DNA of 64,000 bases. It comes from a virus. The stretch lies in UHGV virus genome UHGV-1430452. One strand, written 5' to 3'. The notes under the pieces were generated by a model. It worked only from the letters and a program-made list of their open reading frames with translations, made no database searches and had not been told where the DNA came from. Positions 3,968-25,657 of this stretch are shown one piece after another. Every line of letters starts with the position of its first letter. The first letter of the stretch is position 1. The translations under genes were made by a program, and so were the position numbers.

Positions 3968-4465
3968 TTACTCTTCCGGATGTTCCTCCGCTGCAAATCT
4001 GGATGAGAATCTGTCAATATCCTGAGTTACACACATTGACTGCAAATATGCTGCACGGAATGGTTTACCGTTAATCTCAGAATCATACGGTCTGATATCA
4101 AGATCGACACTTGCAATATCAATTTCGTCGAGCATGGATACTGTTTCTTCATCAAGTTTGACTCTATTTCTACCAGACTGAAGATATACAATAGGGCCTC
4201 TGTCGTTAAATTTGACTTTAACTGGAAGATAGATAAATGGTTCATCTCCATCTTCTCTTGGCGGTTTGATCTTTACATTCCATCCTGCTCCAAACTTATT
4301 TACATCATTCTGCAAAGCTTCTGCCATTTCTTCGTTAGGGATAATCAAAGCGAAGTTACGGTCTCCTTCTTTGTTGAATTTACCGCCTTCTCCTCTGAAG
4401 TTTCTGAAAATGATTCTTGCGTCATCGATCTGTAATACTCCTCTTGGTGCGAATGTTAATTCCAT
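3968..4465 (-). CDS. Putative ssDNA-binding protein (T7 gp2.5/DUF2815-style OB-fold; tentative)
   Basis: It has an acidic C-terminal tail (AAEEHPEE) and a beta-rich body, and sits next to the replicase. The family assignment is from memory only. Confidence 0.4.
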   Translation of the reverse strand: MELTFAPRGVLQIDDARIIFRNFRGEGGKFNKEGDRNFALIIPNEEMAEALQNDVNKFGAGWNVKIKPPREDGDEPFIYLPVKVKFNDRGPIVYLQSGRNRVKLDEETVSMLDEIDIASVDLDIRPYDSEINGKPFRAAYLQSMCVTQDIDRFSSRFAAEEHPEE

Positions 4466-4946: not shown

Positions 4947-7900
4947 GGCAGCTCTACATCTTCATCATCGAATGGAATTTCCTCAGGAGATCCTTCCGGT
5001 ATGTTCATGAAGTCTGGTAAATGAGAATCTCTAAAAGGAGGTTCATGCCGATCTGAAGCATCCCAAGGCGGAGTACCAACATATGGATCGTCTGATATGA
5101 ACCACTCAGCGTCTCCGTATTGACCAATAGTTTCAAGAGCATCATCCACAAGCTTTCGATAATATGAACGATCAATATTTTCTTCATTTCCCGGAGACAT
5201 CATTAACTCGGATTCAAGCCAACGGAAACCAGTTGTTCCTGTAGCTGCATAATATTTACCGTTCTGTTCTCGCATCAATAGTCCTCCACCCTTTCCAGGC
5301 TTAACCGGACAAAATTGCCCAACTTTACCTACGAAATGATAGTCATGACCTTCAGCTATTAAATCGTTTAATCTTCGACACTCACTTTCGAAAGTTGTGT
5401 CCGATAACTTACCTTTCCTGTACTTATCTTCAAGTTTGGATAGTTCTTTTTCATACTCGGATACATCTGGAAGTTTTTCGTTCATATCCAAATATAAAGC
5501 AGATTTTACTGAGAATGCTTCGCACATATCTTTCAACTCAATTGGTTCTTTACTGAACAGTGTTTTAAATACATACGGAACTGCAAACTGTTTTCCAGTA
5601 GCTGTCCATTCTCCGGCATTCTTTCCATCTTTAAACCTAGCCACGTACACAGCATCATTTACTAAACAGAATTTTTCAAAGTTAGCCTCTGTTTCAAATG
5701 TATATCCGTATTCTTTACCGAATTTGGTTACGAAATCAATAATATCAGGAGTAGCATCGGGTATCTTTATGGAATCTGTCTTGATATGACAAACAGTAAA
5801 TCCTCGTTTCTGAACTTCTCTTTTCAATAATGTCATGAAGAGAGCTCCTCTTTTGGCAACAATGTTATCCTTATTTCTAGGATCTCTAAATTCATTTACG
5901 AAGCCAGCTGATGTCAAACCATAAATGGAATTGATAACAATCTTAAGTGCCTGCGCTAAATCAGCAGCCTGTTCTTCATTTAAGTATGGTTTCAACGCTC
6001 CACCTAATAATTGTCCAGCTGTTTCAAAGTCTTTATGCTTAATTGCAACACGAGCTTTTACAATATCCTCAAACCGTTTTGTATATTCTGGTCCAAATAG
6101 ACATTCGAATATAATACTGTGAGGATGCTGAGAAGCAATGTCTCCATCCCATACATTACCGTAATGCCCAGGTTCAGAGTAAACCCGACCGCCTTCTCCA
6201 ATGGCTTCGCCTAAATATGTTGATTTACCAAACTCAAAAGTATAGCCTTTAAAGAATGGAAGAATGCTATAACCTTCTGGAAGCTTTTCGCCAGGAACGT
6301 AAGATCGATATAATGGAAGACCCTCAGAATCAAATACTCTGAAATCATAATCATCTCCGAATTTAATTCTATATTCATCATAACGATCTGAGCTAACCGG
6401 TTCCGCCAAGTATCTATAGTTGAATACATTCTGCGGTTTTTTATTATTTCCAAATATAATTCTTTTAGAAAGAGTATTTGTCGTATCATTAACTGTAACG
6501 TTTGTAATATCATGTAAGAGTTTTACAAGATCAACCTGAATCTGTCTAGCAACAAAGTCTGCTTTTCTTGCATTGAATACAGCTTCCGTCGCAATGACAT
6601 CATTATCGCAATACTCAGCAACCTTTGCCCATAATTCTTCTGGAACTGGTTGATCCCAAGGAAGACCAAGCTCTTGATGATGAATACCCAGTTCAATCTC
6701 CCATTTCTTTAAACTCTGTTTCACAGTTGACATATCATATACATCAATGTAACCAAGATTATATGCCTCACCAAACATGCCATTATCACGGCTTCCCTTT
6801 GGAGCATTAATAATTCTTTGAGATAACTTATATATTTCCTCATTTGTGTATCCCATAAGTCTAGCATAAATGATATGTCTGTCGTATTTACGTCCATTAA
6901 AATCAACAAGTTTAAACTTTAGAAGATTTTCTATTTCTGCTGGTGTAGGATTAATTAATCTAACTACTGTTTTTCCTTCTCCAGCAAACTTATAGTTTAC
7001 CAAAAATAAATTTGGGAATACCTCACAATCATAGAATACAAGATCGTCAGTATCACCCTCATTACTTGTCTCTGAAGCCTCTTCACTCTTAAACGCCATC
7101 TGATTAACTAACTTCAAACACTCATCAGCCTGGTTACTACTACTCGCCGCCAAAGCAAATACAGCATTTTTCATATCAGACACATCATATCCAATACCAC
7201 TCTCATAAGCCTCATCCAAAAGTTTCTTAATCATTTGAATACTTGGAGCTGTGTTACCCATAATTTCTTTATTCAGATGTTTCTTAAGAACGGATCTCAA
7301 ATATTTCTCATTCTTAATACCATCAAAGTTAATCACATTTTTCACCTCTTTCAACGGAAGACCTGAGCTAATTGTACGAATAACAAGATTGACACACTTA
7401 GTAAGTTTTCTTCTAAGAGATGTTTTACCGGTAAATACCTTAATCTCGATATCCTCATCAAATATACGACTTAATTCACTCACATCACCGTTATAAATAT
7501 AATGAAGATGAATACCTCCACCACTTTTGCTTAACTCAGCATATGTTGGAGGCCATTTACTAGCTGCTTCAAGATTCTTCTCGAAACATTTATTACCATT
7601 CTCGTCCTTAATATCAAAGTCAATAACTACATGATTTTCAGGGACCTTGACGTAATGAAGTTTTGATGTGTCAAGTTCTGATAGGGTAGTTGAAACTTCA
7701 TCCCATGGCTTCGTCGGAGTTTCTTTTGAAGTAGCATATTGAGCTGGACAATCAGAACATTCTTTATCAAAAATAGACTCCTGTTCTTCAAATATAAGCC
7801 AGCTCTCAGTTTTCTCATCTCCAATAGGTTTCTCTGCTTTAACCTTTTTCTTCCCACCAATAGAGTCTTCGAAAATATCAGTCTTAAAACCGTCGTAATA

Positions 7901-11373: not shown

Positions 11374-12312
11374 TCAAATCATGTTGAGAATATCCCCATC
11401 CACATTGAAATCAAGAAGAATAGTTCTCTCATAACCGTTCACGAAGTTACGATTTGCCTCGTTGTAAGTGTTATAGATTCCGAAATCTACGAAATTATCA
11501 CCTACTGGATGTTTCTCGTCATAAATCCATCCAACAATCTGACCTGCCTGTGTACGCGGGATTCCGAGCATATCATATACTTCATTCAGGAACAGATGAC
11601 CTTTCGTTTTCAACATGTCATTTGCATAACGCTGCTGATCTTTAAGGAACATTAGATTGAATTCAGGATCTTTAGTCCATCCTGTACATCCATCATCGAA
11701 GAATTTAGCATAATCGCTGTAACTGTCGAGAGTTGCTACATTTGCTGTTTTCTTAACAGTAGTTTCTGTACCATCTTCATTTACAACAGTCTCTTCGATT
11801 TCTTTTGCTTTGATGTTGTACTTCAGTTCTTTATCAAGCTCTTCACCAAATCTCTCAATAACACGACCACGATATTCCTTGAAGCCTTTGTCAATAGTTG
11901 CATAAGCGGCTGCAAGTGCTAAGTTACGTTTACGAAGAATATGATGACCACTAAGAATAGCAGCGATAGAAACTGTTCCAAGGATTACTGCTGGAGCATA
12001 AAGTTTTGCTACCTTTACGGCTGTTTGAGTATACATGATAGTTAAATCTTTCTTACCATCTTCTTCTGTGTACTCTTTACCTTCTGGAACCATATCTGGA
12101 TTTTCCATAAATTCATGAATTTTCTCGATTTTTTCTTTTGGCTCAGCGAGCACCTCATCGAGTTTAGTAGTTGCTTTACATGCCATTACAGCAGAGCCAA
12201 CTACACCAACAATACCTGCGCCAACCAAGATTTCAGGGCTATGCTTTTTAAATTTAAAACCTACACGATGGAGGCTTCTAGTTACTGTGTTCATAATTTC
12301 TAATTTTGCCAT
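11374..12312 (-). CDS. Two-TM membrane protein, paralogue 1 of 3 (DUF6353-like; name from memory)
   Basis: It shares SPEIL.G.GI.G...SAV.A.KAT.K, a second TM, A..Y......Y..kV.e..GE and ..L...Y..LG......G...GW with 14387..15214 and 16675..17442. Confidence 0.6.
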   Translation of the reverse strand: MAKLEIMNTVTRSLHRVGFKFKKHSPEILVGAGIVGVVGSAVMACKATTKLDEVLAEPKEKIEKIHEFMENPDMVPEGKEYTEEDGKKDLTIMYTQTAVKVAKLYAPAVILGTVSIAAILSGHHILRKRNLALAAAYATIDKGFKEYRGRVIERFGEELDKELKYNIKAKEIEETVVNEDGTETTVKKTANVATLDSYSDYAKFFDDGCTGWTKDPEFNLMFLKDQQRYANDMLKTKGHLFLNEVYDMLGIPRTQAGQIVGWIYDEKHPVGDNFVDFGIYNTYNEANRNFVNGYERTILLDFNVDGDILNMI

Positions 12313-14386: not shown

Positions 14387-15214
14387 TTAATAGTAGCTAT
14401 CGAAACCATATTCCGGAGGCATCAGATGATCAATAACAATACACGGTTCATTATCTTCCGTAATTTGAGCACTATATCTCACATCGATTTTGCCTTTATC
14501 GATTCTCCAACCGATGCTATTACCAACTTCGGTATGCTTAAGACCAATTTCGTCATAGAAATCATTCAGAGAAATATACATCTCGTTACCGTTGATCATT
14601 CTCTCATTAAGAGTAAGAACAGCATTTTTAATCTTGTCGATATCCGATCTGAAATATCTGTCGGAATGACTGTCATAACACAACGTGTTACCTTTACCTG
14701 TCATGATAATCTGAGTGTCTGCAACCGGATGTTCTTCAACTTGCTTCTTAGCGACTTTATCTCTGATGTTATTTTCCTTCTTCTCTCCGATAGTCTCTAC
14801 CACTTTCTCTCTGTAGTCAGACAGTGCTGTTGTAGATAACTGATATGCTGTTGCCAATGCTGCGTTACGTCTTACATGTACGGAATTAGCACCGATAAGA
14901 CAAGCGACTGACGCAATGCCAGTGATAGCTGCTGGAATATAAGGTTTCCAAGCTGCTTTTACTGTTTCGACAGGTGTGAGATTTAAAGCGTTTCTTTCGT
15001 CTTCTTCTGTGAAAATACCGCCTTCATGAGCTTCTTTCTCTTTAAACTTCTTCTCTTCCTCGATTAACTCCATAGCTTTTGGTGTTGCTTTTACTGCAAG
15101 CACAACAGTAGATATCATACCTGCGATACCAATGCCAGTAAGAATTTCCGGACTGCGTTTTTTCATTACATATTTTGCAGTGTTTAAAAATTTTGTTACA
15201 TTTGGTTTGTTCAT
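14387..15214 (-). CDS. Two-TM membrane protein, paralogue 2 of 3 (DUF6353-like)
   Basis: Alignable by eye along its length with 11374..12312 and 16675..17442. Confidence 0.6.
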   Translation of the reverse strand: MNKPNVTKFLNTAKYVMKKRSPEILTGIGIAGMISTVVLAVKATPKAMELIEEEKKFKEKEAHEGGIFTEEDERNALNLTPVETVKAAWKPYIPAAITGIASVACLIGANSVHVRRNAALATAYQLSTTALSDYREKVVETIGEKKENNIRDKVAKKQVEEHPVADTQIIMTGKGNTLCYDSHSDRYFRSDIDKIKNAVLTLNERMINGNEMYISLNDFYDEIGLKHTEVGNSIGWRIDKGKIDVRYSAQITEDNEPCIVIDHLMPPEYGFDSYY

Positions 15215-15262: not shown

Positions 15263-15303
15263 ACTCGGGAAAATTTTGATCTTGAAAAAATAGAAATCGA
15301 AAA

Positions 15304-15375
15304 GAAACAGTGTAGGACTCGAACCCACAACCTACAGATATAAGTCTGTTGCTCTACCAATTGAGCTAACTGTTT
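15304..15375 (-). tRNA. tRNA, probably Ile(UAU), with a 6-nt anticodon loop (72 nt)
   Basis: Hand fold: acceptor AAACAGT/ACTGTTT, D arm GCTC-AATTGGTA-GAGC, anticodon stem ACAGA/TCTGT with loop CTTATA, variable loop AGGTT, T arm GTGGG-TTCGAGT-CCTAC, discriminator C. Confidence 0.7.
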
Positions 15376-15380
15376 CTTCT

Positions 15381-15407
15381 CATAATAGCGCTTGTAAATT
15401 TCGCGAA
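15381..15407 (-). promoter_or_regulatory. Early-box copy 5 (drives the tRNA)
   Basis: Plus strand CATAATAGCGCTTGTAAATTTCGCGAA. The TATTAT ends 6 nt before the mature tRNA 5' end at 15375. Confidence 0.6.
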
Positions 15408-15420
15408 TATAGATCTTCAG

Positions 15421-15452
15421 AAACAAAAAAGAAGAACCCCGAAGGATTCTCC
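15421..15452 (-). terminator. Intrinsic terminator (UUCG tetraloop) after 15452..15622
   Basis: Minus strand GGAGAATCC-TTCG-GGGTTCTTC then TTTTTTGTTT. Confidence 0.65.
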
Positions 15453-15622
15453 TAGACTTTCTTCTGAAGCTCAGAAACTGCTTTCTTCAACTCTTCAAAC
15501 TCCTTTTCTTTTTTCTGATCTGATAATGCACCTGCTATAGCCATAATACCTGTTACTACAACACCTGCATATTTTCCGACAGACTTCAGAAGCGGATTAT
15601 TGATAATACCTTTGAATTTCAT
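15452..15622 (-). CDS. Mini-protein (56 aa, MKFKGIINNPLLKSVGKYAGVVVTGIMAIAGAL + Lys/Glu tail), below the ORF-track cutoff
   Basis: Hand translation; GGAGACGAGAAAA SD; box copy 6 upstream and a UUCG-loop terminator downstream. Confidence 0.55.
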   Translation of the reverse strand: MKFKGIINNPLLKSVGKYAGVVVTGIMAIAGALSDQKKEKEFEELKKAVSELQKKV

Positions 15623-16674: not shown

Positions 16675-17442
16675 TCAATACTCTTCGTAATCAATGAACG
16701 GCTCTGTGAAATCTACAATATAACATTCAATACCGTCGTCCATTTCTACTTTTGTATGGTGGAAATATAGCCAACCATCCCAGTACATTTCATACATCTG
16801 AGCTGCGGACCAACCCATAAATTCACCGTAATCCTGTCGATCAATCTCTAGTAAATCGTAATAATCGTTTAAAGATGCACCACCGGATTGAGATAGCATT
16901 TTATTAATCTCATACTCTGCTCTCAATTGAGTTTCTTTCGTCACACGGTAATAACGTTTGGAATATTCATCGTAGAATAGTGTTTTGCCATCCTCGTATT
17001 CGTCGTCATATTCTTCTTTGTCTTCTTCCTCGTAATGGTCTTTTGCTACAGCAGCACGAATGAGTTTGTCTCCGTCTTCACCATATAACTTTTTAACTTT
17101 GTTTTTGTACTCTTTGTGAGTTTGGTCTAGTAAGGCATAAGCAGATGCGATGGCTGCTTGGGAATGTTTGTTTAATAGATTCGCGCCAAATATGCAAGCT
17201 AGGGTTCCTGTTCCAATCAATAAGGAAGGAATATATGTTGGTCCTGCTACTCGAATAGTCTCCCATTTTGTTAATTCATCTCCTTTCTCTTCTTCAGCTA
17301 GTTCAATAAGTTCCATTGCTTTCGGAGTAGCTTTAACCGCCATTACAGCTGTACCTACCACTCCGGCAGCTCCTAATACTGTTAATATAGTAGAGCTGTT
17401 TTTCTTTACGAATCTTTTCGAAACTGTTAGTAAGTCATTCAT
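16675..17442 (-). CDS. Two-TM membrane protein, paralogue 3 of 3 (DUF6353-like)
   Basis: ORF track 16675..17451; ATG at 17442 preferred over the GTG. It shares VKATPKAMELIE with paralogue 2. Confidence 0.6.
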   Translation of the reverse strand: MNDLLTVSKRFVKKNSSTILTVLGAAGVVGTAVMAVKATPKAMELIELAEEEKGDELTKWETIRVAGPTYIPSLLIGTGTLACIFGANLLNKHSQAAIASAYALLDQTHKEYKNKVKKLYGEDGDKLIRAAVAKDHYEEEDKEEYDDEYEDGKTLFYDEYSKRYYRVTKETQLRAEYEINKMLSQSGGASLNDYYDLLEIDRQDYGEFMGWSAAQMYEMYWDGWLYFHHTKVEMDDGIECYIVDFTEPFIDYEEY

Positions 17443-17472
17443 TTCCAGCACGCTCCTTGGCGATAAATTTGG

Positions 17473-17528
17473 TAAAAATAAAAAGAGAAAGAAAAGAGTC
17501 AGCTTGTTGTGTAAACCAAGTCTAACTC
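17473..17528 (-). terminator. Terminator-like hairpin + long U-rich run located downstream of box copy 8, in the leader of paralogue 3
   Basis: Minus strand GAGTTAGACTTG-gtttacacaa-CAAGCTGACTC then TTTTCTTTCTCTTTTTATTTTT. Confidence 0.45.
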
Positions 17529-17563
17529 AATTCTTTTTGTCATTATCCGAAATAACAATATCC

Positions 17564-17590
17564 CATAACAGGTGATGTAATTTTCGCGAA
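17564..17590 (-). promoter_or_regulatory. Early-box copy 8 (followed by a terminator-like hairpin)
   Basis: Plus strand CATAACAGGTGATGTAATTTTCGCGAA. Confidence 0.55.
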
Positions 17591-17593
17591 TCC

Positions 17594-17815
17594 CTACTGC
17601 TCAAAAAATAAAACTACATCTACCGGATCTTTGAAGTGCTGCTCCTCCACTACTTCTTTAAATTCTTCAAATGATTCCGGTTCGTATTCTTGTAAATATA
17701 AAATCTGTTCAAGCAATCTTCCGTAAAATCCTTGAGAATTAGATAGCATTTTTACCACACCAATGACTTGTTCAACATCATAACCGTCTGCTTTCTTTTC
17801 CATAGCGTTTGCCAT
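17594..17815 (-). CDS. Hypothetical acidic protein (73 aa from the SD-supported start)
   Basis: ORF track 17594..17824. The ATG at 17815 sits in the recurrent GGAG..TTCAAAATG context. It is preceded by a ~170-nt GC-rich leader. Confidence 0.6.
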   Translation of the reverse strand: MANAMEKKADGYDVEQVIGVVKMLSNSQGFYGRLLEQILYLQEYEPESFEEFKEVVEEQHFKDPVDVVLFFEQ

Positions 17816-17993
17816 TTTGAACACTCCTTTAATTGGTTTTTGATAAAAATAAAAAGAGAATACAATGACTTCAGGGTCGGCCCAACGAAAACCGTTGCCC
17901 GGTGGGTAGCATGTTTTATTACGTTATTACGTGCCGCTACGCCTTCGTGTCTCACCACTGGATTTCCACCAGTATCTATCCATTGCTTTCTCT
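17816..17993 (-). ncRNA. Candidate structured 5' leader / cis-regulatory RNA (class unknown)
   Basis: This ~170-nt gap between box copy 9 and the start at 17815 is visibly GC-richer than its surroundings. Several helices can be drawn: CUGG/CCAG, GUAGC/GCUAC with GUGG/CCAC, ACGU/ACGU and CAACG/CGUUG. Confidence 0.35.
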
Positions 17994-18020
17994 CATAATA
18001 GGTGATGTAATTTTCGCGAA
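17994..18020 (-). promoter_or_regulatory. Early-box copy 9 (consensus copy; followed by the GC-rich leader)
   Basis: Plus strand CATAATAGGTGATGTAATTTTCGCGAA. Confidence 0.6.
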
Positions 18021-18311: not shown

Positions 18312-18346
18312 ATAAATTCCTCCTTATTCGATTTCATTGTTTTTCT

Positions 18347-18373
18347 CATAATAGGTGATGTAATTTTCGCGAA
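18347..18373 (-). promoter_or_regulatory. Early-box copy 10 (identical to copy 9)
   Basis: Plus strand CATAATAGGTGATGTAATTTTCGCGAA. Confidence 0.6.
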
Positions 18374-18536: not shown

Positions 18537-18572
18537 TTTAGATTCCTCCTGTTAAGCAATTTATTATCTTTC

Positions 18573-18599
18573 CATAATAGGACTTGTAATTTTCGCGAA
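18573..18599 (-). promoter_or_regulatory. Early-box copy 11
   Basis: Plus strand CATAATAGGACTTGTAATTTTCGCGAA. Confidence 0.6.
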
Positions 18600-19319: not shown

Positions 19320-19347
19320 CTATAATAGAAGAGGTTTAAATCGCGCG
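19320..19347 (-). promoter_or_regulatory. Early-box copy 14
   Basis: Plus strand CTATAATAGAAGAGGTTTAAATCGCGCG. It overlaps the stop of 19336..19695. Confidence 0.5.
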
Positions 19348-19695
19348 TCTATCGAAGCAAGTTTCCCATCGTTCTCGCTTAACTGGCTTCATTTTCATAG
19401 TCCACATCATTTGTCGGACCGTTACGGTGGGATATAAACCGTTCTCAGGTTCTCCCGATCTATCCTCGAAGAACTCCAGGAATCTTTCATGTAAATATAA
19501 AGTGTCTGTCAGCCACGGATCAATCTCGCCCCACCAGGTATTTTTCGTCGCTGGATCATATCGCTGCTGAATAACAGCTAGTCCTTTTCGTCCCATTTTG
19601 AATAAAGTACATTTACTGTAAACTGGATGATCACATTCATAAGTTTCTCCGTACATCGATACATAAACTTTTGGCTTTTCGTAGTGATAACGCAT
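19336..19695 (-). CDS. Hypothetical protein (119 aa)
   Basis: ORF track; AAAGGATAATAGTAAT SD-like region; box copy 15 upstream. Confidence 0.6.
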   Translation of the reverse strand: MRYHYEKPKVYVSMYGETYECDHPVYSKCTLFKMGRKGLAVIQQRYDPATKNTWWGEIDPWLTDTLYLHERFLEFFEDRSGEPENGLYPTVTVRQMMWTMKMKPVKRERWETCFDRRAI

Positions 19696-19791: not shown

Positions 19792-19868
19792 GGAATAGCG
19801 CGGGATTCGAACCCACGACGTTGAGTTTCCTCTTATTCTTCCATTAGAACTAACCGTCTTAACTATTC
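19792..19868 (-). tRNA. tRNA-like element with canonical acceptor + T arm but a non-canonical body (77 nt; isotype undetermined, possibly a pseudo-tRNA)
   Basis: Acceptor GAATAGT/GCTATTC; T arm GTGGG-TTCGAAT-CCCGC. The 45-nt interior cannot be folded into D + anticodon arms. It pairs instead as GACGGTTAGTT/AACTCAACGTC around a purine-rich 20-nt loop. Confidence 0.5.
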
Positions 19869-19917
19869 CAGAGACTTCTTCCGATATATTGCTATACGGG
19901 AATTGTTCTCTTCTTTT

Positions 19918-19945
19918 CTATAATAGGAAATGTTTATTTAGCGAA
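19918..19945 (-). promoter_or_regulatory. Early-box copy 16 (upstream of the tRNA-like element, ~45-nt leader)
   Basis: Plus strand CTATAATAGGAAATGTTTATTTAGCGAA. Confidence 0.5.
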
Positions 19946-20357: not shown

Positions 20358-20384
20358 ATCAATAACCTCCTATAAGTTTATTCT

Positions 20385-20411
20385 CATAACAGGCGTTGTA
20401 ATAATAGCGAA
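20385..20411 (-). promoter_or_regulatory. Early-box copy 17
   Basis: Plus strand CATAACAGGCGTTGTAATAATAGCGAA. Confidence 0.5.
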
Positions 20412-23397: not shown

Positions 23398-23994
23398 ATG
23401 ACAATAGGACAAAAAATAAAAGAATTACGCAATCAACTTAATATGTCGGTGGATGATCTTGCTGTGAAACTGGGTAAGAACCGTGCGACTATCTACCGCT
23501 ATGAACGAGGAGATATCGAGAACCTCCCTCTCGATGTACTAGAACCATTAGCAAATGCTCTTGAGACCACACCTGGTTATTTAATGGGATGGGAAGAAAC
23601 TACGAAAAAGAAAGAGCCTTCAATTATCGATGAAGTTACCATGGGTGACGTTTTTAAAGCGTTACGTCTAGGAAGTAATTTATCGATAGAGGAATTTTCG
23701 CATGAGATTGGATTATCTGCCCAAGACATAAGCAATTATGAAGCAGGAAAGACTCCTATACCTGTAAATATAATTAATCTTGTTGCTGATTTCTTTGGCA
23801 TATCAATAGCGGAAATAGTTAAGGCACACAAAAACAGCGAAAATAGAACGCCTTCTGGTTTCGAAATGAAAAAGGAACGATTTGAACGTTTTAAAGTTTG
23901 GAATAAAGAGTTTGGACGAATACATTTTACTGATGAAGAAATCAATAAAATAATGGAATATACAAGGTTCTTACTTAGCCAAAGAAGACAGTAA
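23398..23994 (+). CDS. CI-like repressor with two XRE-type HTH domains and no S24 peptidase domain
   Basis: IGQKIKELRNQLNMSVDDLAVKLGKNRATIYRYERG and FKALRLGSNLSIEEFSHEIGLSAQDISNYEAG are both HTH_XRE-like. The C-terminus is short and lacks Ser/Lys protease motifs. Confidence 0.75.
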   Translation: MTIGQKIKELRNQLNMSVDDLAVKLGKNRATIYRYERGDIENLPLDVLEPLANALETTPGYLMGWEETTKKKEPSIIDEVTMGDVFKALRLGSNLSIEEFSHEIGLSAQDISNYEAGKTPIPVNIINLVADFFGISIAEIVKAHKNSENRTPSGFEMKKERFERFKVWNKEFGRIHFTDEEINKIMEYTRFLLSQRRQ

Positions 23995-24079
23995 GTCTAC
24001 ATAGGTTTACTCTATTTAAAGGAGGTGATGCCTGAATTCAGTTCATCGTAGAATTTACATCAAAGGAAAGGTGGAACCA

Positions 24080-25657
24080 ATGACAACGTTTGATATGAAC
24101 AACGCTGTAGACAATGCGTTCGGTATGGACGTATATGCTATCTATCTTCGGAAAAGTCGAGCCGATGTAGAAGCAGAAAAACTTGGAGAAGGAGAAACAC
24201 TAGCAAGGCATAGAAAGATACTAACAGAACTTGCTGCTAGAAAAGGATTGTATATCGGTAAGATTTACGAGGAAATTGTATCTGGTGAAACAATCGAAGC
24301 TAGACCTGAAATACAAAAACTGATAGAAGATTGTTATAAAGGGAAATATAGAGGAATCCTAATAGTAGAAGTTACTCGTCTATCTCGTGGTAATCAAGGA
24401 GACGCTCAAAAAATACTCGACTGTCTCAAATATTCGAATAGAAACAATGGTGTATTAGTTATCACTCCTACTAAGACTTATGACGTTGCACACAGCCAAG
24501 AAGACGAAGAATATATGGAGTTTGAATTGTTTATGTCTCGTCGAGAATATAAGATGATTCAAAAGCGTATGGATCGTGGCCGTAAACAAGCAGTCGTAGA
24601 AGGAAACTTCATGGGTAGTTACCGTCCCTATGGATATGACATCTTAAAAACCAAGACCGGACGAACACTTATACCGAATGAAGATGAAGCTCCTATCGTG
24701 AAAATGATTTACGAATGGACAGTTAACGATAATTTATCTCCTTTCAAGATAGCTGAGCGTTTAACTAATATGGGTGTTCCTACTTATTATGGTGAGAAGG
24801 ATTGGTCTAAAGAAACAGTTAAAACCATTTTGACGAATCAGACATACATGGGTAAAGTTCGTTGGAATGATCGAATGACTGTTAAGACTATGGTCGACGG
24901 AGAACTTAAAGCTACACGACCTCGTTCAAATCATTCCGATCACTTCATGCTATATGATGGAAAACATATGAAACACGCACTCGTCGACGAAGAAACATTC
25001 AAAGCAGCCTCCTCTCGCTTTCATAACGATAGGACAAGATCAAATCTAAAACTTGTTAATCCTCTTGCAGGACTTCTATTTTGTAAGAAATGTGGTAAAT
25101 CTATGGGTTATCAATCATATAGACATAAGAAAAACGGACCAATGGATCGATACAATCATAGACAGTCTGCTAATGGATGCAAGGTTAAGTCAGCAGTTGC
25201 TGAGGATGTTATAAAAGCTGTTATACATGCTTTGAAACTTTATATAGAAGATTTCGAATTTAAGTTAGACAACACTCCAGATGTTGACGAAAATTCAATC
25301 AATACGCAGCTCGAAGCTTTACAAAAAGAAATACGAAAATCCGAACGAAAACTTGCTAAGCTATTCGATTCTTGGGAAGATGAGAAGATAACAGATAATG
25401 AATTTGTTCAAAGGAAAGCCGTCCATAATCAGAAGATAGAAAATATAAAGAGGCAAATGGAAGAACTCGAATATTCGATACCAGAAAGAGAAGAATATGA
25501 GGATAAAATAATATTGCTGTCTGAAGCACTTGTCGCTATCACAGACGAATCGCTTGACGCAGATATTAAGAACGAGTATCTTAAAAGAATCATTGATAGA
25601 ATAGAGTTTAGTAGAGAGAATAACTCAGAGTTTATACTAGATATAGACTTATGCTAA
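24080..25657 (+). CDS. int: Large serine recombinase (integrase)
   Basis: YAIYLRKSRAD (catalytic Ser), VTRLSRG, a recombinase domain, the zinc ribbon CKKCGK...C and a C-terminal coiled coil. ATG at 24080 after AAAGGAAAGGTGG (the ORF-track GTG is at 24071). Confidence 0.85.
   Translation: MTTFDMNNAVDNAFGMDVYAIYLRKSRADVEAEKLGEGETLARHRKILTELAARKGLYIGKIYEEIVSGETIEARPEIQKLIEDCYKGKYRGILIVEVTRLSRGNQGDAQKILDCLKYSNRNNGVLVITPTKTYDVAHSQEDEEYMEFELFMSRREYKMIQKRMDRGRKQAVVEGNFMGSYRPYGYDILKTKTGRTLIPNEDEAPIVKMIYEWTVNDNLSPFKIAERLTNMGVPTYYGEKDWSKETVKTILTNQTYMGKVRWNDRMTVKTMVDGELKATRPRSNHSDHFMLYDGKHMKHALVDEETFKAASSRFHNDRTRSNLKLVNPLAGLLFCKKCGKSMGYQSYRHKKNGPMDRYNHRQSANGCKVKSAVAEDVIKAVIHALKLYIEDFEFKLDNTPDVDENSINTQLEALQKEIRKSERKLAKLFDSWEDEKITDNEFVQRKAVHNQKIENIKRQMEELEYSIPEREEYEDKIILLSEALVAITDESLDADIKNEYLKRIIDRIEFSRENNSEFILDIDLC

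Follow-up and report, generated by a model that had tools for sequence, protein, structure and literature searches.

A promoter-equipped tRNA-like gene of temperate gut phages is probably a non-decoding tRNA mimic

The virus genome UHGV-1430452, of which a stretch of 64 kb was analyzed in full (hereafter the window), carries a tRNA-like gene on the minus strand (15375..15304) that has all parts of a cloverleaf but only six nucleotides at the anticodon position. The question raised by this locus was whether such a gene still decodes, as was originally proposed for an isoleucine tRNA, is a sequence error or a dead copy, or serves another purpose. Comparison with related phage sequences points to a real, conserved, promoter-equipped RNA gene which keeps the tRNA shape except for the decoding loop, and we regard it with high confidence as a conserved non-decoding tRNA mimic. 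The specific mechanism proposed below, in which the mimic is processed by RNase P/Z-type enzymes, is given about an even chance.

The 72-nt element reads, 5' to 3' from 15375 to 15304, AAACAGU UA GCUC AAUUGGUA GAGC A ACAGA CUUAUA UCUGU AGGUU GUGGG UUCGAGU CCUAC ACUGUUU C, and every part named in the original prediction (7-bp acceptor, D stem, variable loop, T arm and the total length of 72 nt) was present (Table 1). Infernal aligned it over the full length with the Rfam tRNA family RF00005 at 62 bits (gathering score 29, E = 2.3e-12), with exactly one anticodon-loop position deleted, and ViennaRNA likewise gave this cloverleaf, 6-nt loop included, as the minimum free energy (MFE) fold (-26.2 kcal/mol, z = -3.9). 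ARAGORN called it at 15303-15376 (minus strand) as the sole tRNA of the window, naming no isotype ("tRNA-???") and reading a 2-nt anticodon (ta). None of the three programs produced a rival fold with a 7-nt loop, and the 6-nt loop in a fully paired ACAGA/UCUGU stem, as first predicted, is thus borne out by all of them and is shared by relatives. The features which RF00005 expects of the cloverleaf were found complete (7/4/5/5-bp stems, U8, A14, G18 G19, T-loop UUCRA and G53-C61), but the set expected of the loop (7 nt, U33, a 3-nt anticodon, purine 37 and an assignable isotype) is not provided by its six nucleotides, and therefore the element was not filed as a tRNA. No CCA end is encoded, and the sequence continues from the discriminator C with UUUU. 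A distant blastn search with the gene returned only generic tRNA similarity (Trp, Ile, Lys and Met, ~78-85%), therefore the isotype of origin could not be fixed; the body is Lys/Thr-like in the D arm, anticodon stem and T arm (compare L017 and L015; L-numbers designate the loci used for comparison).

A sequence error, which had been offered as one explanation of the missing nucleotide, was refuted by the recurrence of the identical 6-nt loop in independent assemblies and in a diverged phage. The same gene is present without any change in two other metagenome assemblies (L025, OHES01000485.1, and L035, OHFN01000869.1), while the diverged phage (L003, the same as L029 and L039), whose neighboring protein is 62% identical, has the CUUAUA loop in a gene with two substitutions, one of them turning the T-stem G-U pair into A-U.

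More distant family members were sought by DNA-pattern scans of IMG/VR, metagenome and genome collections with the anticodon arm left free. The exact pattern including the T arm gave nothing in IMG/VR, while looser patterns found relatives sharing the upstream promoter-like box, the acceptor strand AAACAGU, the discriminator C and the U-run trailer. A covariance model (R1) built from ten members and run on 70 sources retrieved about 27 members, from gut Lachnospiraceae-type phages and prophages, and scored the window element at 97.1 bits; members had also come from a survey of 80 IMG/VR loci encoding DUF6353, the protein family found downstream of the element. Forms without the D arm (L006, L007 and L040) are poorly captured by tRNA models: a permissive Rfam scan of L005-L009 detected no tRNA, and the D-arm-less variants there were seen only by eye or by regular expression. 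Apart from tRNA, Rfam contained no family for the element, and no description of such elements in phages (6-nt loops, tRNA-like leaders) was found in the literature.

Within this family, the loop at the anticodon position appears to be free in both sequence and length (2-38 nt). Its sizes in the R1 alignment were 2, 3, 4, 5, 6, 7, 8, 10, 21, 34 and 38 nt with the mode at 6, and the sole canonical loop among those compiled, CUCAUAA, belonged to the control tRNA-Met of the phage contig MT835495. The same body with the discriminator C, often with an identical ACAGA/UCUGU stem, stands behind loops as different as CUUAGG (L016), CUUAAG (L023), AUUACU (L020), UGUGUA (L032), GGAAAC (L107), UAU (L108), UAUU (L037, in the genome of the Lachnospiraceae isolate C84_6_DL94_Fmh, MGBC000187), UUAUU (L053), UUAAAAA and UUAAACA (the two copies of L010), UUUGUAA on a 6-bp stem (L004), CAUUUAAAAA (L104) and a 21-nt hairpin insert (L036). 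The survey of DUF6353 loci also gave the loops UAUC (L083) and UUAAUU (L118). The majority of the 6-nt loops begin and end with Watson-Crick partners (C-G, A-U or U-A), resulting in a 6-bp stem with a UUAN tetraloop; the window element has a C-A pair at this place. The rate of evolution of the loop is close to that of the variable loop.

The remainder of the fold, namely the cloverleaf stems including that at the anticodon position and the elbow nucleotides U8, A14, G18 G19, UUCRA and G53-C61, is under selection as judged by covariation and conservation. Standard pairing was observed in 94.6% of the pair cells against 74.9 +/- 1.0% with shuffled partners (a value reached in 0 of 500 shuffles) and 27-43% in controls with the partners slid by 1-3 columns. 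Double changes occurred in 19 of the 21 pairs, including all five of the anticodon-position stem, and all four stems covary, while the members keep G18 G19 in the D loop and UUCRA in the T loop. The 5' acceptor strand hardly varies, since it coincides in part with the purine-rich stretch transcribed first after every box, and variation of the 3' strand leads to G-U pairs or occasional mismatches. The term pseudo-tRNA used in the original prediction comes closest to the truth, except that it can't be understood as a decaying pseudogene, as the stems covary and the promoter is conserved. Some signs of decay do exist in the family: L037 combines an A-A acceptor mismatch with its 4-nt loop, a G-A mismatch occurs in L020, and an IS3-type transposase splits L036. 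Neutral drift of a dead tRNA copy is, however, contradicted by the strong compensatory covariation and by the conserved dedicated promoter and leader/trailer pairing, and an assembly indel by the identical loop in at least three independent assemblies and the diverged phage; this whole explanation is considered extremely improbable.

The family comparison also decided against the proposed decoding function, in which the loop would be read as C32 U33 U34 A35 U36 A37 and the gene as tRNA-Ile(UAU) supplementing the translation of AUA. Its premise was correct: ATA makes up 32% of the Ile codons in the window codon count (22.7 per 1000), and GTA and TTA are common as well (21.8 and 20.9 per 1000). 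The motif C/A-U-U-A-N recurs in four 6-nt loops, among which each of the four bases is represented at N, and the relatives with UAG, UAA and UAC would read CUA, UUA and GUA, respectively; moreover, phage tRNAs with non-standard loop sizes exist (PMC5009743). However, one body with the discriminator C and A1-U72 cannot serve IleRS, LeuRS and ValRS in turn, and, taken literally, the loops on this same body would mean Ile, Leu, Leu, Val, Phe(AAA), Thr or nothing. A long variable arm, which the bacterial LeuRS requires, is absent from the body of the element. Furthermore, position 37 or 38 is missing, ARAGORN assigned no isotype, most of the 6-nt loops close to a tetraloop by their Watson-Crick ends, and the loops of close relatives measure 2-5, 8, 10 or 21-38 nt. 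Tetraloop closure apart, the Ile(UAU) assignment was rejected because one shared body carries incompatible anticodons and loops of 2-5 nt present none, and a decoding tRNA is very unlikely here.

Even less credible is a frameshift tRNA acting by doublet decoding or by a -1 shift from the shortened loop, as might be thought from the 2-nt anticodon read by ARAGORN. Bruce, Atkins and Gesteland are said to have obtained weak doublet decoding in vitro with engineered 6-nt loops in 1986. Doublet decoding by tRNA is documented (PMC12202706), but natural odd-loop tRNAs, including those of phages, are not known to mediate frameshifting (PMC5009743). In our family, the loop length is not kept among close relatives, and near the element there is neither a split gene nor a gene needing a shift, the coding being dense in the standard frame. 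Recoding of stop codons, another candidate, was rejected on account of the dense coding in the standard code, and in general the window needs no special decoding: 53.5 of its 64 kb lie in standard-code open reading frames of at least 100 aa. A comparison of the loop with the downstream leader and ribosome-binding site (RBS), made only by eye, showed no convincing complementarity.

The claim that the gene is driven by an early box was supported by the sequence directly upstream. The promoter-like box there contains a palindrome, TTCGCGAA, and a -10-like TATTAT, and is present in five copies on the same strand from 15.3 to 18.6 kb (with no more than 3 mismatches), where shuffled sequence would give 0; a sixth copy, at ~20383-20409, is more degenerate. 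At every copy the order is the same: a terminator-like hairpin with a T-run, the box, the RBS and the gene. This box stands before every family member in other phages, and it is kept across dozens of related gut phages. A sigma-70 promoter scan of the window did not call it; it has a good -10 TATTAT with no -35 at 16-18 nt. The length and conservation of the box, with GAGA behind it, brought a T7-like single-subunit polymerase into consideration, but no such polymerase was found in the window. If TATTAT is the -10, the spacing TATTAT-GAGAAG-A1 would place the transcription start at G-1/A1, in agreement with the predicted start at or next to the mature 5' end.

The short leader so transcribed would continue the cloverleaf. 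Its AGAAG (-5 to -1) pairs with C73 and U74-U77, extending the acceptor helix by five bp (the MFE fold of leader, tRNA and trailer shows four extra pairs, the first base of the construct being -4). In all members, 3-6 nucleotides of leader separate TATTAT from position 1, and these can pair with the discriminator and trailer and covary with them: GAG/CUU (leader/trailer) in most members, GAAG/CUUU in the window, L003, L104 and L114, GAGAG/CUCUU in L053 and L044, GGAAG/CUUCU in L041 and L049, and A-1/U73 in L118. The acceptor is followed by CUUUU or CUCUU in all members, a U-run trailer without CCA. Because leader and trailer pair and covary, which they do not in the control tRNA-Met of MT835495, the selected terminal helix is, by this evidence, longer than a tRNA acceptor stem and begins at about the transcription start.

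Downstream, the RBS/start of a DUF6353 gene follows 89 nt after the tRNA-like gene with no terminator or box in between, and the same arrangement, with the element 28-90 nt upstream of the DUF6353 start and neither terminator nor box intervening, was found in ~20 distinct members. In three others (L041, L048 and L049) the element forms a stand-alone cassette followed by a new box with a small membrane-protein gene and only afterwards by DUF6353, while the element of L118 precedes an unrelated, non-DUF6353 gene. Two N-terminal membrane helices are predicted in the DUF6353 protein, and at least 8000 homologues, without names, are present in metagenomes. The Pfam and PHROG entries for DUF6353 give no function, no paper on it was found in the literature, and its AlphaFold model (pLDDT 61.5), confident only in the C-terminal ~100 residues, had no Foldseek match in the PDB below E = 1.

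Taken together, these properties describe a cassette consisting of the box promoter, a 3-6-nt purine leader, the tRNA-like fold and a C with a U-run, which would operate among the early genes of a group of temperate siphophages infecting gut Lachnospiraceae. In the proposed mechanism, firing of the box would start transcription of the element, and the nascent RNA would fold into an L-shaped tRNA mimic. Host enzymes that measure tRNAs from the elbow would recognize this mimic: RNase P, RNase Z, for which the U-rich trailer lacking CCA would be the target, and perhaps the CCA-adding enzyme. The cleavage would release a stable RNA of 72-80 nt and, in most of the phages, would also set the 5' end of the downstream DUF6353 mRNA, with the anticodon arm acting as a mere spacer helix tolerant of deletions and inserted hairpins.

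Several points weigh against the non-decoding mimic processed in this way. We infer the processing by RNase P/Z only from the shape of the element, and the leader/trailer pairing, unusual for tRNA precursors, could hinder either enzyme; the functional form may instead be the unprocessed, end-paired primary transcript, and the closing helix with the U-run may be a weak terminator. One DUF6353 paralogue, behind the box at 17562-17588, uses a leader of hairpin and terminator instead. The covariation was counted on an alignment fitted to the model, although an independent hand segmentation of ten members showed the same compensatory changes. Four of the five distinct 6-nt loops of the core clade keep C/A-U-U-A, behind which there may be some constraint on the loop or simply shared ancestry. 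Finally, a simple hairpin would suffice for a pure processing or stabilizing role; that the tRNA features are so elaborate and that some cassettes stand alone may therefore point to an additional function in trans.

Such a function in trans is the most serious alternative to the processing mechanism, although clearly the less probable of the two. The mimic might be a decoy or sponge that occupies a host factor binding tRNAs (for example a nuclease or sensor of tRNA-targeting defence, or an enzyme of processing or modification) or a dedicated non-ribosomal acceptor working with DUF6353, possibly histidine-chargeable via G-1:C73. It would account for the stand-alone cassettes of L041, L048 and L049, composed of box, tRNA-like gene, U-run and a new box, for the selection on elbow and acceptor features with the loop left free, and for the tight linkage to DUF6353 in about 20 of 27 members. 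Nearly all members have a pair of G-1 with C73, which covaries to A-1:U73 in L118, but G-1 is present in every box, even with no tRNA-like gene behind it, so that the promoter explains it, and the -1:73 pair is merely the first of 3-5 extra pairs. Phage tRNAs have been proposed to counter tRNA-targeting defences (PMC10264068), but anticodon nucleases need the anticodon loop, which is precisely the varying part. As for the partner protein, its poor model (pLDDT 61) without a fold match below E = 1 allows no claim of tRNA-related activity, and the second tRNA-like element of the window, as well as that of L118, precedes a non-DUF6353 gene. In its most general form, a dedicated class of early non-decoding mimics acting in trans, with the elbow and acceptor preserved and the anticodon arm as a freely evolving or cargo module, this idea is slightly more doubtful still.

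The leader/trailer helix with its U-run leaves room for an attenuator role as well, in which the fold and the U-rich closing helix would act on the RNA polymerase, by partial termination or in a put/EAR-like antitermination, and gate the read-through into DUF6353. The T arm followed by CUGUUUCUUU was flagged as terminator-like in a terminator scan, every member ends in a C with a U-run, and one DUF6353 paralogue of the window has a classical hairpin and U-run terminator between its box and RBS. Moreover, a box-driven RNA of ~150 nt is closed by the same kind of helix with a 5'-purine and a 3'-U-rich strand, the next box following it in L004/L022. However, the closing helix of the element is AU-rich and multibranched, its U-run does not adjoin a GC-rich hairpin, and attenuation leaves unexplained the conserved U8, A14, G18 G19, UUCRA T loop and 7/4/5/5 cloverleaf, which makes this explanation unlikely.

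Table 1. Coordinates of the tRNA-like element and of the associated features in the window
Feature	Position	Strand	Remarks
Acceptor stem, 7 bp	15375-15369 with 15311-15305	minus	
D arm (stem GCUC/GAGC)	15366-15351	minus	
Anticodon-position stem ACAGA/UCUGU, 5 bp	15349-15345 with 15338-15334	minus	fully paired
6-nt loop CUUAUA at the anticodon position	15344-15339	minus	read from the sequence
Variable loop, 5 nt	15333-15329	minus	
T arm GUGGG-UUCGAGU-CCUAC	15328-15312	minus	one G-U pair
Discriminator C	15304	minus	
Trailer UUUU	15300..15303	minus	directly after the discriminator; pairs with the leader
Leader GAGAAG	15376..15381	minus	its GAG belongs to the box
Promoter-like box CGCGAAATTTACAAGCGCTATTATGAG	15379..15405	minus	ends 3 nt before tRNA position 1
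Terminator-like hairpin + T-run	15430..15453	minus	closes the preceding small gene (15452-15622); terminator scan
27-nt repeated box (tTCGCGAAAaTTACAnnnnnTATTATGAG)	15379-15405, 17562-17588, 17992-18018, 18345-18371, 18571-18597, ~20383-20409	minus (all)	
DUF6353 (PF19880 / phrog_2152) gene	14387..15214	minus	Pfam 4.3e-89, PHROG 1.7e-91
DUF6353 paralogues	11374-12312, 14387-15214, 16675-17451	minus	

Additional structured elements were observed both in the window and among the relatives. A second, degenerate tRNA-like element is located at 19792-19869 (minus strand), ~55 nt after a box-like promoter (~19915-19945); a long T-run comes after it, and the gene that it precedes (19336-19695) is not of the DUF6353 family. 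The element has the acceptor GGAAUAG/CUAUUCC and the perfect T arm GUGGG-UUCGAAU-CCCGC, while its anticodon arm is replaced by GAG-GAAA-CUC; it scored 36 bits with R1 and weakly matched the tRNA clan (19.2 bits), and was missed by ARAGORN and at the Rfam gathering threshold. A conserved copy of this element is present in L025, and L029 has one that differs by 3 substitutions. L010 (IMGVR_UViG_3300045988_066433) contains two copies of the family (4259-4332 and 5886-5957), each before its own DUF6353 paralogue, and both were labeled tRNA-Phe(AAA) by ARAGORN, a probable mis-annotation of the family. In L036 (Lachnospiraceae bacterium MGBC000092, 480-700) a long hairpin, ACUGAGG-AAU-GGCA-GUAAUU-UGCC-CCUCAGU, forms the anticodon arm, and it is the T arm that is split by the IS3-type transposase gene.

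Two other box-driven regions nearby are structured as well. The leader of the DUF6353 paralogue 16675-17451 (17452-17561, minus strand; z = -4.6) has a 5' hairpin and then a strong terminator-like hairpin with a U-run, both standing between the box (17562-17588) and the RBS, which suggests control of this paralogue by attenuation or antitermination. A conserved, box-driven non-coding RNA of ~150 nt is located at ~17845-17994 (minus strand), between the box 17992-18018 and the gene 17594-17824. It has a multibranched consensus fold, in which the 5' GAGAGAAAGCAAUGG pairs with the 3' UCAUUGUAUUCUC and a U-run, with compensatory changes in 5 pairs among 3 homologues and no match in Rfam; in L004/L022 it stands alone, with the next box directly after it. 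This RNA is a candidate for a new structured RNA or a riboswitch-like leader, and these early modules seem to make regular use of small structured RNAs with paired ends.

The window as a whole represents the genome of a temperate, siphophage-like virus with a G+C content of ~37-40%. Almost every gene lies on the minus strand; the recognizable genes are those of a terminase, a portal, a protease-capsid fusion, a 2515-aa tape-measure protein, a serine recombinase, a primase-polymerase and the three DUF6353 paralogues. Megablast of the locus against 50,697 phage records gave no match. The closest GenBank phage was an unannotated human-faecal phage contig, MT835495.1 (84.6% aa identity in TerL), which carries a normal tRNA-Met only and no member of the tRNA-like family. 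The host is probably a member of the Lachnospiraceae, because two relatives of the element reside in Lachnospiraceae genomes. A plus-strand island at 23398-25657, with the serine recombinase gene (24071-25657) and an ORF of 198 aa, interrupts the minus-strand genome, the GC and AT skews being inverted at 24-26 kb; it is presumably the lysogeny module. An attP or integration-site tRNA fragment was rejected as the origin of the element: the gene is of full length, has its own promoter and lies ~9 kb from the serine recombinase gene, and in the prophage-like genomic copy L037 the element is inside the early region.

To our knowledge, phage tRNA genes have almost always been interpreted as codon-usage helpers or, lately, as replacements for tRNAs destroyed by defence systems. 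The family described here would represent a conserved, promoter-equipped phage "tRNA" in which the decoding part is dispensable while the tRNA look to processing enzymes is kept. Annotations of such genes as tRNA-Ile, tRNA-Phe(AAA), tRNA-Thr or undetermined, labels which ARAGORN gave to relatives of the element, probably mislabel a distinct RNA class. The element would also provide the first functional handle on DUF6353, a large protein family of the gut virome without a known role and, if the function in trans is true, would belong to a phage tRNA-mimicry system going beyond an RNA processing signal.

Among the known systems, the canonical phage tRNAs of T4, T5 and mycobacteriophages are similar in being phage-borne cloverleaves with the tertiary nucleotides and with changes concentrated in the anticodon loop, but they keep a 7-nt loop with a readable anticodon and decode, in contrast to a loop of 2-38 nt with no isotype in a single promoter-proximal gene linked to one protein family. 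Odd-loop phage tRNAs reportedly include those of Cluster M mycobacteriophages, with expanded loops and in large tRNA arrays. Substitutions in the anticodon loops of phage tRNAs have been proposed to evade host anticodon nucleases (PMC10264068), and natural anticodon loops of odd size are found in yeast and sponge mitochondrial tRNAs and in a phage with many relatives (PMC5009743). With such tRNAs, as with engineered or suppressor tRNAs having 6-, 8- or 9-nt loops, the element shares a non-7-nt loop in an otherwise normal tRNA; unlike the phage cases, the loops of its family are mostly shortened, variable among close relatives and often closed to a tetraloop. The resemblance to tRNA-His consists in G-1 opposite C73 in nearly all members and in a GUG inside the 6-nt loop of L032; however, G-1 here belongs to the box, the pairing reaches to -3 and up to -5 (-5:77), GUG is absent in the window element and the other members, and the body is unlike tRNA-His.

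Closer parallels are found among tRNA-shaped RNAs that do not serve translation. The mascRNA of MALAT1 and the tRNA-like/pre-miRNA units of murine gammaherpesvirus-68 are excised by RNase P and RNase Z for other purposes. Like the phage element, they are tRNA-shaped modules whose anticodon loop is degenerate, and they are made in one transcript with another functional RNA, as the phage element would be in most phages, but they belong to another domain of life, with a different polymerase and partner RNA, and have no sequence relationship to it. The t-elements of plant mitochondria are non-canonical cloverleaves with a conserved GGTTCRANYCC T arm, located upstream of mRNA 5' ends and cleaved by RNase Z and RNase P (PMC1920247). 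The phage element has the same combination of a perfect T arm (here GGTTCGAGTCC) and an acceptor stem with other parts non-canonical, and would likewise lie immediately upstream of an mRNA, with the DUF6353 RBS within 28-90 nt in ~20 members and three members standing alone; it would similarly serve as an RNase Z/P signal creating the mRNA 5' end and releasing a small stable RNA. It differs in belonging to a Firmicutes phage and not to an organelle, in the dedicated promoter 3-6 nt upstream and the covarying leader/trailer extension, in being a better preserved tRNA (62 bits with RF00005) with some stand-alone copies, and in that its cleavage is predicted. By analogy, the element would work most like a t-element or a mascRNA-type mimic, and would be their counterpart in bacterial viruses, with the testable idea that phages use the host RNase P and RNase Z as an RNA-cutting service.

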